Shown here one piece after another: positions 39,253 to 39,986 of a stretch of 64,000 bases of DNA (the first letter of the stretch is position 1; every line of letters begins with the position of its first letter). A program made the position numbers and the translations under genes. The notes under the pieces were generated by a model, which was not told the origin of the DNA, did not search any database, and saw only the letters and a program-made list of their open reading frames with translations. This DNA is from Candidatus Falkowbacteria bacterium (lineage in GTDB: Bacteria > Patescibacteriota > Patescibacteriia > CAIXNZ01). Where the stretch lies: NCBI GenBank assembly GCA_963774955.1, contig CAVZGV010000004.1, positions 131,522 to 195,521 on the forward strand. The letters run 5' to 3'.

Positions 39253-39327
39253 TTTGATATTCGGGGATGTGGGACTTGCCCGCCGAAGGCGGGTCCGCCT
39301 CTGGCGGAAACCCACCGGTTTTGATAT
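39253..39327 (-). repeat. Direct repeat of the tRNA-Pro 3' end plus ~20 nt of its downstream flank (aagtcccacaYccccgaatatcaaaa..tgggttt), separated by two GC hairpins (cccgccgaaggcggg and tccgcctctggcgga)
   Basis: Seen directly; resembles an att-site scar. Confidence 0.5.
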
Positions 39328-39399
39328 TCGGGGTGTGGGACTTGAACCCACGACCTTCTGGTCCCAAACCAGACGCGCTAGCCAACTGCGCTAACCCCG
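39328..39399 (-). tRNA. tRNA-Pro(TGG)
   Basis: cggggtt-agcgcagttggctagcgc..tctgg-ttTGGga-ccaga..gtcgtgggttcaagtcccac-accccg-a cloverleaf. Confidence 0.85.
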
Positions 39400-39471
39400 T
39401 TATTAATAATTTTCAGTAACCAATAATCAACTTCCAATAATTTTTAAATTAAAATTACCGTTGAGATTACT

Positions 39472-39546
39472 TGGTGCCGAGGGGGAGAGTCGAACTCCCG
39501 ACACAAGGATTTTCAGTCCTCTGCTCTACCGCTGAGCTACCTCGGC
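39472..39546 (-). tRNA. tRNA-Phe(GAA) with encoded CCA
   Basis: gccgagg-ta-gctcagcggtagagc-a-gagga-ctGAAaa-tcctt-gtgtc-gggag-ttcgact-ctccc-cctcggc-a-cca. Confidence 0.85.
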
Positions 39547-39604
39547 ACGTCACTGCGCGAGCGACGTGCCGAGGCTCGTCGTTTGCGAGTTAAAATAGTT
39601 TGGG

Positions 39605-39678
39605 TGCGCGTGGGAGGACTCGAACCTCCGACCTCGTCATTATCAGTGACGCGCTCTAACCAGCTGAGCTACACGCGC
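39605..39678 (-). tRNA. tRNA-Ile(GAT), in the 16S-downstream spacer
   Basis: gcgcgtg-ta-gctcagctggttagagc-g-cgtca-ctGATaa-tgacg-aggtc-ggagg-ttcgagt-cctcc-cacgcgc-a. Confidence 0.85.
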
Positions 39679-39694
39679 TTATTTGATTAATTTT

Positions 39695-39753
39695 GCGCTC
39701 TAACCAGCTGACCTGCCCGCCGAAGCTTTAGCGTAGGCGGGAGCTACACGCGC
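39695..39753 (-). pseudogene. Partial tRNA-Ile 5' segment (acceptor 5' strand plus D-arm) interrupted in the D-arm by a 29-nt GC-rich insert ccgcctacgctaaagcttcggcgggcagg
   Basis: gcgcgtgtagctc-[insert]-tcagctggttagagcgc, directly upstream of the intact tRNA-Ile. The insert termini match the extensions at the tRNA-Gly halves. Confidence 0.55.
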
Positions 39754-39986
39754 AAATTATTTTAAAATATTTTCAACTTCTAACAACAAATTTCTAATCC
39801 CTGGCAAGATAATATAATCTAAGTTTAACAAAAAGGGCTGGCTCGATCAATATCATAAAACGATCTTAACTAAGCCAGCCTCTTTTGATAAGTCCTTAAC
39901 TCCTAAAAAGTGATAGAATCGCCGTTGTCCAAATTAATGGACTCGACCTAATAGAGTAAAACATTTTCATGTAATTACTTATTTAC

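Follow-up and report, generated by a model that had tools for sequence, protein, structure and literature searches.

The stretch of DNA analysed here (the window) comprises 64,000 nucleotides from a Candidatus Falkowbacteria bacterium (assembly GCA_963774955.1, contig CAVZGV010000004.1, positions 131,522 to 195,521), in which genes for tRNA-Ile, tRNA-Gly and tRNA-Pro lie beside partial second copies that are interrupted or adjoined by short GC-rich hairpins. The window has about 40% GC and is bacterial by its 16S rRNA gene, and the closest homologs of the proteins encoded nearby come from Candidatus Parcubacteria metagenome-assembled genomes (MAGs). The affected tRNA genes and their neighbours are all on the minus strand, where the order is 16S rRNA (41493-39994), tRNA-Ile, tRNA-Phe, tRNA-Pro, a protein kinase gene, an open reading frame (ORF) of 109 amino acids, tRNA-Gly, an ORF of 138 amino acids, a gene for a TrmB-type regulator, about 1.8 kb of non-coding DNA and a Ro60/TROVE gene. 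tRNA and other RNA genes were annotated with ARAGORN and with Rfam, the latter at gathering thresholds on the window, its relatives and eight viral loci, and for 30000-42000 also in a relaxed search (E up to 1). Pfam was used to scan the window's 33 larger ORFs.

A first-pass annotation made from the sequence alone had reported hairpin inserts and duplicated tRNA ends in this cluster. All the features that it named are present, on the minus strand, with four details corrected below, and the contrast in base composition that it pointed out holds, with 68-74% GC in the inserts compared with about 40% in the window. It had missed that a full tRNA-Gly is nested in the insert at the tRNA-Gly site, and that the inserts all fall in loops or junctions of the cloverleaf.

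Interrupted copies beside intact tRNA genes

All window features in this section are read on the minus strand. Upstream of the intact tRNA-Ile(GAU) (39603..39678; ARAGORN and Rfam, 75.5 bits), which is presumed to be the functional gene, lies a stub that reads GCGCGTGTAGCTC, a 29-nt insert CCGCCTACGCTAAAGCTTCGGCGGGCAGG, then TCAGCTGGTTAGAGCGC. The first-pass description of a partial copy at 39695-39753 split by such an insert was accurate. Nucleotides 1-13 of the tRNA (39741..39753; the acceptor 5' strand, U8 A9 and the D-stem 5' strand) are identical to the intact gene at 13/13 positions, and nucleotides 12-28 (39695..39711; the rest of the D-arm) at 17/17, so that the dinucleotide TC stands on both sides of the insert. 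The insert itself (39712..39740) is a GC hairpin in the D-loop, with the stem CCGCC/GGCGG, the loop TACGCTAAAGCTTC and the tail GCAGG. A promoter-like sequence, TTGTTA-16-TAAAAT at 39786-39759, precedes the stub, and the transcription start predicted from it falls close to the first base of the stub.

The tRNA-Gly site is more elaborate. The 5' half of an outer tRNA-Gly, from nucleotide 1 to C36 of the anticodon (37588..37624), matches the intact gene at 37/38 positions (BLAST E=3e-14), and the 3' half (37384..37420) matches at 32/33 (E=3e-11). Between them, in the anticodon loop, a 167-nt insert (37421..37587) begins with CCGCCTGCC and finishes with GGCGGGCAGG, and holds a leader, a complete tRNA-Gly(UCC) (37462..37534; Rfam 67.7 bits) and a trailer between the arms CCGCCTGCCATAGTACAC... 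and ...GTGTACGGCGGGCAGG. This inner gene, presumably the functional one, carries its own paired leader and trailer; complementarity of 13-22 nt between leader and trailer is seen for both Gly copies and for the Ile unit. Two separate extensions of the tRNA-Gly halves had been proposed earlier; their termini are real, but they are the two ends of this single insert (37587-37421). When the 167 nt are deleted in silico, ARAGORN calls a tRNA-Gly(tcc). The whole unit folds as a tRNA within a stem within a tRNA, at -114.9 kcal/mol compared with -69.4 for shuffled sequences (z = -9.8); in the relative L003, introduced below, the nested fold has z = -4.9.

At the third site, the intact tRNA-Pro(UGG) (39327..39400; ARAGORN and Rfam) is followed by a 19-nt trailer (39308-39326) and by a 30-nt double GC hairpin (39278..39307), CCGCCAGAGGCGG-A-CCCGCCTTCGGCGGG-C (CCGCC-AGA-GGCGG, A, CCCGCC-TTC-GGCGGG, C), which scores 21.2 bits with the covariance model R1 described below. 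What remains of an older tRNA-Pro comes next (39241..39277), with the last 17 nt of the gene and about 20 nt of trailer, 88-93% identical to 39344-39308 as a direct repeat. The repeat of the tRNA-Pro 3' end around GC hairpins had thus been recognised correctly in the first pass; its extent is corrected to 39344-39308 and 39277-39241, that is, the last 17 nt plus trailer. Trailer and double hairpin together separate the two repeat copies by about 50 nt.

tRNA-Phe differs in kind. A hairpin at its 5' end (39540..39574; arms 39574-39560 and 39554-39540, 93% complementary) carries the first 7 nt of tRNA-Phe in its 3' arm. The hairpin and the acceptor bases had been noted before, but the repeat is inverted rather than direct and the stem has 15 pairs, not 8. 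Acceptor-stem complementarity by itself dictates seven of the nine 'repeated' bases, which are thus weak evidence for a duplication, an explanation that we rejected on these grounds. The relative L001 lacks this hairpin.

Orthologous sites and a conserved-loop hairpin family

Relatives were reached through the protein kinase, which has only three detectable homologs, on contigs that keep the same gene order. Searched in this way in the protein database and two big contig collections, the syntenic tRNA cluster was found in four lineages only. Ro60, as another route, has many homologs, and the tRNA cluster is not syntenic outside the close clade. L001 (kinase identity 82%) has a plain tRNA-Gly, two copies of tRNA-Pro with a GIY-YIG ORF and a double hairpin, and a tRNA-Ile stub with a hairpin ahead of the intact gene. 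L002 (kinase 75%) has a plain tRNA-Gly and a single plain tRNA-Pro, and tRNA-Ile is not on the contig. L003 (kinase 52%) combines an outer tRNA-Gly carrying four inserts and an intact inner one with a single plain tRNA-Pro and with the same tRNA-Ile arrangement of stub, hairpin and intact gene. L004 and L005 are the L003 lineage assembled from other samples (99.8-100% identical), with the same nested Gly structure.

These contigs supply sites both with and without inserts. In L001 and L002 an uninterrupted tRNA-Gly stands behind the same conserved promoter-like sequence that precedes the outer tRNA-Gly in the window, and a single tRNA-Pro without hairpins is found in L002 and L003. The Gly insert is homologous over its full length to the L003 insert at the same anticodon site and is absent from L001 and L002; the nested arrangement is thus kept in two divergent Parcubacteria, whose relatives carry the empty site. 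The outer 5' half is identical to the 5' half of the uninterrupted tRNA-Gly of L001, and the outer gene as a whole is the L001 allele with one change, G39T, which breaks the 31-39 base pair. The inner gene is 73/73 identical to the tRNA-Gly of L002. From these comparisons the Gly unit looks like an allele mosaic, in which an insertion would have brought in another allele and decay would have started in the interrupted copy. The outer tRNA-Gly of L003 is interrupted by four separate hairpins, at position 26/27, in the anticodon loop, in the T-loop and at the junction of T-stem and acceptor.

Upstream of tRNA-Ile, L001 and L003 also have nucleotides 1-13, a hairpin and (G)CAGG. The hairpin stems differ with compensation, CCTCC/GGAGG and CCCC/GGGG (L001 and L003) compared with CCGCC/GGCGG in the window. 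The Pro remnant is the positional ortholog of the only tRNA-Pro of L002 and of the 5'-truncated second tRNA-Pro of L001, and each of the three lies just upstream of the same terminator. The order at the L001 site is intact tRNA-Pro, GIY-YIG ORF, double hairpin, and a tRNA-Pro without its first ~17 nt. The L001 double hairpin (1293-1322) is orthologous to that of the window, with covarying stems, and lies directly 3' of the GIY-YIG gene. This gene (1033-1284) encodes a stand-alone nuclease of 83 amino acids (53.1 bits), and its setting among tRNA genes is reminiscent of a free-standing homing-endonuclease cassette.

The lead to a wider hairpin family came from L003, where 16 bases of the Ile insert recur a short distance upstream of a gene for a retron-type reverse transcriptase. 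An exact scan of IMG/VR with this 16-mer and then a 17-mer of the loop gave about 85 loci, about 55 of them with the same hairpin on different stems. The covariance model R1, built from 13 copies, matches 71 copies in 63 sources, with some of the copies near Ro60 genes on contigs of Parcubacteria and Falkowbacteria. The loop, TWCGCTAAAGCTWY, has 14 nt and is almost invariant, the stem is GC-rich and variable, and the tail past the stem has the consensus C-A-A/G-G (CARG). Over the 71 copies, 94% of stem cells are paired and 5/6 pairs have changed on both sides, a level of covariation reached by 0/500 shuffles. At loop columns 15 and 19, GCTAAAGC alternates with GCCAAGGC (T/A to C/G), which implies a base pair closing a two-base loop. 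Two-base loops closed in this way are better known from mini-hairpins of DNA than from RNA. As a canonical member, the Ile insert reaches 47.8 bits (E about 1e-8 to 1e-9), a score that is partly circular because the insert is among the 13 sequences used to build the model. The earlier proposal of a small, GC-rich palindromic element is borne out by this family with its covarying stems and by the insert-free orthologous sites of the relatives.

The family is hosted by contigs of 30 to 71% GC, some of them from giant-virus MAGs. Orientation is unbiased: sense and antisense copies number 10 and 11 between co-directional genes, and 9 and 12 within ORFs. Of nine close pairs in other loci, 8 form inverted doublets; there are none in the window, and its Pro double hairpin is not an inverted family pair. 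Up to four copies occur per viral locus of at most 15 kb, compared with one strong and two or three weak copies in the 64-kb window. Most copies are intergenic or inside ORFs, in both orientations, and a tRNA gene adjoins only one of about 56 viral-contig loci (L021), so targeting or marking of tRNA genes is not supported as a general trait of the element.

The ends of the Gly insert, the Pro hairpins and the extra inserts of L003 share a CCGCC(T)...GGCGG-RCARG frame without the canonical loop (R1 21 and 12 bits), and on sequence grounds they are probably relatives of the family. The second Pro hairpin resembles a loop-deleted member, with the tail CAAG. The terminus motif that had been taken to unite the inserts, the 10-mer GGCGGGCAGG, is not significant alone (4 matches with at most one mismatch vs 2.1 expected); both exact copies and a one-mismatch copy at 39284-39275 do adjoin tRNA fragments. 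The exact junction pattern of the Gly insert was not found in viral contigs. A possible further member, recognised by eye and not reported by R1, lies upstream of 16S (41641..41671, minus strand; CGCC-TTCGC[CGCACGATGCG]GAGCTAC-GGCG).

Several searches bear on what the family might be. The hairpin has no match in Rfam and no convincing BLAST match in cultured phage and plasmid collections, and sequence strings searched in the open literature returned primers only; the family is apparently undescribed so far. No protein recurs as its neighbour in the viral loci, either by Pfam on flanking ORFs or by tblastn with Y1, GIY-YIG, reverse transcriptase and intervening-sequence (IVS) proteins. We also considered pairing of a loop AGCTAC with the tRNA sequence GTAGCT as a targeting guide; this fails, as the loop of the window copy ends in AGCTTC. 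In unrelated contigs (e.g., L049, L059, L064, L086, L091) a variant 5' arm CCTCC faces the 3' arm GGCGG with the same T-C mismatch, which suggests that the mismatch is tolerated or required, or that it arises by a shared route of mutation. In L042, L031 and L029 a family hairpin lies 10-25 nt upstream of an ORF start. The reverse transcriptase of L003 (12003-13277, also in L004 and L005; PADLOC RT_III-A, E=7e-40) directly follows the outer tRNA-Gly, in the position of the 138-aa ORF of the window, with a canonical family hairpin about 15 nt before its start codon. In L021, a viral or proviral contig, the hairpin and the 5' end of a tRNA-Gly(UCC) overlap; ahead of the hairpin GGAAGTATTGGCGGGCT occurs twice, at a spacing of 58 nt, the neighbouring gene encodes a serine recombinase of 535 amino acids, and the region (8877-9010, minus strand) may be an attachment site.

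How the inserts may have arisen

We favour the reading, with a probability of roughly one half, that the inserts are REP/REPIN-like DNA insertions in the loops of tRNA genes, tolerated only where an intact copy stands alongside. REP and REPIN elements are mobilised by RAYT tyrosine (HUH/Y1) transposases (PMC3116915, PMC3337134, PMC3733652). The hairpin family appears to behave in the same way: it is a structured, multi-copy palindrome that occurs singly or as inverted doublets, without preference of orientation and sometimes within genes. In the scenario that we suspect, short hairpin elements would land in loops of tRNA genes in this Parcubacteria lineage. An enzyme of the HUH/Y1 type would recognise the hairpin as single-stranded DNA and, where a tRNA gene folds as a single strand, would have access to its loops as targets. 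Such targeting would fit the placement of the inserts, since it is the loops that stay exposed when one strand of a tRNA gene folds, although placement in loops and junctions fits simple tolerance equally well.

An insertion of this kind would survive where an intact copy was co-delivered or duplicated alongside. We infer that only layouts with an intact copy beside the interrupted one persist, because each tRNA gene is probably single-copy and essential. The uninterrupted genes would do the work, and the interrupted pieces would be pseudogene remnants that form part of the leader or trailer of the transcript and are lost once RNase P and RNase Z have freed the intact tRNA. As an alternative or additional route, double-strand breaks made by a GIY-YIG nuclease could be repaired with duplication, as at the Pro site of L001; by analogy with T4 SegB (PMC2330249, PMC13096335), a contribution of such repair at the Pro site is credible.

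As to the mobilising enzyme, we conjecture that it is encoded by the RAYT-like ORF at 44579..45289 (minus strand), 5 kb from the tRNA cluster, which has a match to the Y1 (HUH) transposase family of Pfam (Y1_Tnp, 26.8 bits; cut-off 23) and an HFHLIL motif in its translation. It is a candidate for acting on the hairpins.

Four points favour insertion at the DNA level: the empty sites, the split of the two Gly copies between the L001 and L002 alleles, the broken stem pair of the outer copy and the four inserts of L003. The lack of any known RNA or splicing signal also supports this reading, in that there is no Rfam match, no bulge-helix-bulge and, among the 33 scanned ORFs, no gene of a splicing type.

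The similarity to REP and REPIN elements has limits. Both are short, GC-rich imperfect palindromes of 20-40 nt that occur singly and occasionally in genes, and in loci other than the window the hairpins may, like REPINs, also stand in inverted dimers or in several copies; REP elements are thought to be recognised as single-stranded DNA hairpins, and a RAYT-like gene is present in the window. The family described here lacks the GTAG/CGTC terminal tag (PMC3733652) and ends instead in variable stem bases, with a conserved loop and CARG tail. REP families are lineage-specific, whereas this loop is shared by very different genomes (30-71% GC, giant-virus contigs). Copy number is low in the window, the RAYT-like gene falls below its family cut-off and has no flanking hairpins (no REPtron), and the elements lie inside tRNA genes, one of them enclosing a tRNA gene.

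Rickettsia palindromic elements are 100-150 bp long and mostly lie in-frame in protein-coding genes. The inserts resemble these elements, known to insert in genes (PMC3733652), and the GC clusters of yeast mitochondria, as palindromic mini-inserts that contrast with an AT-rich, reduced genome and land in genes of a surviving host. They differ from both in that we detected no sequence similarity and in that tRNA genes are hit here, each with an intact copy.

Several observations weigh against the insertion scenario. Decaying pseudogenes should drift, and these pieces have not, so that the scenario needs gene conversion, a recent or recurrent origin, or selection on the pieces; gene conversion is plausible over the 36-37-nt Gly halves, but not over pieces of 8-13 nt. 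The 13-nt Ile stub matches the tRNA-Ile of its own genome exactly in three genomes (window, L001, L003) with differing acceptor stems. The tRNA-Gly of L003 differs from that of the window at about 7 positions, yet the outer and inner copies of L003 agree: the outer segments (26+11+19+9+8 nt) join to the exact inner tRNA (73/73). The arms of the Gly insert keep their pairing through a compensatory change, GTACAC/GTGTAC in the window vs GTACAT/ATGTAT in L003, and they align better between the two than the neighbouring intergenic DNA. The tRNA-associated hairpins of this lineage are all oriented as the tRNA. The loop is conserved from Parcubacteria to giant-virus contigs, unlike classical, lineage-specific REP families, and, since the window holds one strong and two or three weak copies, a high copy number is not shown for this genome. 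We could recognise neither a transposition intermediate nor a consistent target sequence or target-site duplication; the left flanks share no more than a richness in pyrimidines or T, and junctions have ambiguities of 1-2 nt. The best NCBIfam match of the RAYT-like ORF is to REP-associated tyrosine transposase at 33.5 bits, under the cut-off of 80; its downstream flank holds no family hairpin, and R1 reported none near it in the window.

We also considered that homing-endonuclease or integrase cassettes have replaced tRNA genes and left the stubs behind as scars. A cassette, with a free-standing GIY-YIG gene or as an integrative element that contributes part of a tRNA, would cut or recombine in the resident tRNA gene and restore it with its own copy, the displaced part would become the stub, and the hairpins would be incidental, as cassette ends, terminators or mRNA stabilisers that do not move by themselves. 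Integrases favour the D-loop, anticodon loop and T-loop as sublocations of tRNA genes, which are the break points found here. The order of intact tRNA-Pro, GIY-YIG ORF, double hairpin and 5'-truncated tRNA-Pro in L001, at the site orthologous to the Pro stub of the window, is what such a cassette would leave. In L021 the hairpin abuts tRNA-Gly beside the large serine recombinase gene, and in L003 the reverse transcriptase gene, with its family hairpin, follows the outer tRNA-Gly. There is a precedent in T4 SegB, a free-standing GIY-YIG homing endonuclease that sits and cuts in a tRNA gene cluster (PMC2330249) and promotes segmental amplification (PMC13096335). As with SegB and tRNA-targeting integrative elements, a nuclease gene stands among tRNA genes (at the L001 Pro site), tRNA segments are duplicated or replaced and partial copies remain as scars.

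The window itself fits the cassettes less well. Pfam on the 33 larger ORFs (which include neither an integrase nor RtcB or EndA) and tblastn, with the L003 retron-type enzyme as query for the reverse transcriptase, revealed no gene for a nuclease, an integrase or a reverse transcriptase close to its cluster; unlike in L001, no nuclease gene stands beside tRNA-Pro. Scars of the att type, as suggested in the first pass, are likewise not shown: the Ile and Gly inserts lack a repeated att-like core, and the Pro repeats are just ~50 nt apart, in keeping with stubs that lie tens of nucleotides from one another. Four separate hairpins in one pseudo-tRNA of L003 are hard to fit as cassette ends. The hairpin family occurs independently of such genes, and cassettes would leave its conserved loop at many sites unrelated to tRNAs or cassettes unexplained. 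We consider replacement by cassettes unlikely as the general explanation.

A further possibility, to which we give somewhat less weight again, is that the inserts are removed at the RNA level, as intron-like sequences with ligation or cut by RNase III like the intervening sequences of rRNA. The outer gene would yield a tRNA or tRNA-like RNA, the inner tRNA-Gly would be released from the 'intron' by RNase P and RNase Z, and the same may apply to the Ile and Pro pieces. This would account for the L003 outer 'exons' that join to the exact inner tRNA despite four inserts, and for inserts that are all self-contained hairpins in a loop or junction and keep the cloverleaf intact. The very stable nested fold (z = -9.8 and -4.9), the conserved arms of the Gly insert with one compensatory change, the Ile stub that follows the resident acceptor stem in three genomes, the ARAGORN call on the insert-deleted sequence and the uniformly sense hairpins of the cluster are also consistent with it.

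Other results speak against such removal. Neither a splicing endonuclease nor RtcB is encoded by the 33 scanned ORFs, and we know of no protein-dependent tRNA splicing in bacteria. The 5' junction of the Gly insert lies within a near-continuous helix of 10 bp, CUUCCCCGCC with GGCGGGCAGG, with one C-C mismatch and no bulge-helix-bulge, both by hand pairing and in the minimum-energy fold; the Ile, Pro and other inserts start directly with their own stem, again without that motif. A group I ribozyme core (P3-P9, usually more than 200 nt) gave no Rfam match at E up to 1, and 73 of the 167 nt of the Gly insert are tRNA. The 31-39 pair of the outer gene in the window is broken, the close relatives L001 and L002 do without an outer gene, and elsewhere the family is unbiased with respect to gene direction and forms inverted doublets. 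The spliced outer tRNA of L003 would be an exact duplicate of the inner one, and so would add nothing. It is the undrifted pieces and the conserved Gly arms that lead us to retain the RNA-level explanation, at low probability.

Two known systems bear on that explanation. Archaeal tRNAs with multiple introns, split tRNAs and mobile bulge-helix-bulge introns, as in Thermoproteales and Nanoarchaeum (PMC10714607, PMC3978253, PMC3218864), are similar in having several short inserts at canonical and non-canonical loop positions of one tRNA gene, GC-rich complementary arms that join halves, and inserts that appear to change position. They differ in that the window is from a bacterium by its 16S, without the bulge-helix-bulge (two 3-nt bulges, a 4-bp helix) and without an endonuclease or ligase among the 33 scanned ORFs; moreover, an uninterrupted identical tRNA is nested inside here, and the interrupted copy of the window has a disabling change. 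The intervening sequences of bacterial 23S and 16S rRNA are also stem-loop inserts in loops of a structural RNA gene, patchy among relatives, and L003 has a 23S-IVS-protein gene in the same tRNA cluster. RNase III cuts such sequences out and the ends stay unligated, a break that would be intolerable in an anticodon loop, and to our knowledge none of the rRNA type occurs in tRNA genes. A bolder version of the RNA-level explanation strikes us as very improbable on the sequences at hand: that the outer tRNA-Gly is truly expressed with multiple intervening sequences, removed in neither the group I nor the bulge-helix-bulge manner and with a second tRNA in its 'intron', and that the family is a mobile intervening sequence of bacteria, phages and giant viruses.

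It is just as doubtful that the stubs are functional decoys in leaders and trailers, which would pair with the acceptor strands of neighbouring tRNAs and, with the hairpins, guide or regulate precursor processing. The leader/trailer complementarity of 13-22 nt in both Gly copies and the Ile unit, the 15-bp hairpin that sequesters the 5' end of tRNA-Phe, and an Ile stub that changes along with the acceptor stem and begins where transcription is predicted to start would suit this role. Such decoys are not conserved in close relatives, with the Gly halves absent from L001 and L002, the Phe hairpin from L001 and the Pro stub from L002 and L003; the sequences are too few for a covariation test, and we know of no system in which stub decoys guide tRNA processing. 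An assembly artefact, that is, chimeric joining of reads from different tRNA gene copies, has nothing for it beyond the general risk of repeats in metagenome assemblies and is excluded for practical purposes, because inserts are present or absent across related genomes with the same layouts in independent assemblies: the motif is found elsewhere, the same architectures recur in assemblies of four other samples, the nested Gly structure in three of different samples (L003, L004, L005) and the Ile stub with hairpin in L001 and L003, and stems differ between genomes with compensation.

Surroundings of the cluster and wider meaning

Rfam searches of the window, the relatives and the eight viral loci, and the relaxed search, returned just tRNAs, 16S and chance-level matches, by which we ruled out group I introns, known ribozymes, YrlA and named hairpin motifs. 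For YrlA there was one weak match (21.7 bits, E=0.88), over tRNA-Phe and tRNA-Ile, and none at the Gly unit, with the Ro60 gene 3 kb away. No 23S gene stands behind the 16S gene of the window, whose processing stem is visible as GAGTGATAGAATCG paired with CGATTCTATCAC (41592-41607 and 39910-39925). About 100 nt past the 16S gene lies a long hairpin with a T-run (39825-39891, minus strand), which is kept in L001 and L003. Since the 16S gene is followed by this conserved hairpin and not by a 23S gene, the tRNA cluster may have its own promoter.

Other genes of the region hint at mobility or defence. The protein kinase between tRNA-Pro and tRNA-Gly (38203-39090, minus strand) resembles anti-phage kinases of the PD-T4-6 type (PADLOC, E=6e-10), and the tRNA cluster may lie inside a small island of defence or mobile genes. 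Between tRNA-Phe and tRNA-Pro, L003 has a gene for a 23S-rRNA-intervening-sequence protein (9504-9863; PF05635) with AT-rich inverted repeats on either side. In the window, AT-rich 'TTATTGGTTA' sequences fill the spacer between tRNA-Phe and tRNA-Pro (39401-39471) and the region upstream of 16S (~42060-42210); they are similar to the repeats of L003 but without the gene.

The Ro60/TROVE gene (32395-34155, minus strand) is separated from the gene of the TrmB-type regulator by the ~1.8 kb of non-coding DNA at 34160-35980. The order of TrmB, 1-2 kb of non-coding DNA and Ro60 recurs in many contigs of the candidate phyla radiation (L001-L003, L042-L044). The spacer holds internal repeats (GAGGTTACTTCAAA...) and, to judge from its sequence and position, probably encodes Y-RNA-like RNAs; no Rfam family matched it, YrlA included. 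Downstream of the Ro60 gene, at 29800-32400, there is a run of short overlapping ORFs, and the three tested (29822-30133, 30436-31014 and 31072-31425) have no Pfam match; the run may represent non-coding RNA or decayed genes.

What is new here is a widespread family of hairpins with a conserved loop, together with a tRNA gene that lies within the anticodon loop of an interrupted copy of itself. Defined by its free stem, its fixed loop of 14 nt and its CARG tail, the hairpin is now a concrete object that can be searched for, from Parcubacteria to giant-virus contigs. A conserved loop on a varying stem points to a widely shared protein that would read the loop, most simply a single-strand DNA enzyme of the HUH type. 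Given that tRNA predictors silently pass over split copies, genomes of the candidate phyla radiation may hold more such cases than have been counted. We found no report of a nested tRNA-in-tRNA layout in bacteria. The nested tRNA-Gly would represent either an insertion that disrupts an essential gene while supplying its replacement, or a first hint of intervening sequences other than group I introns in bacterial tRNAs.

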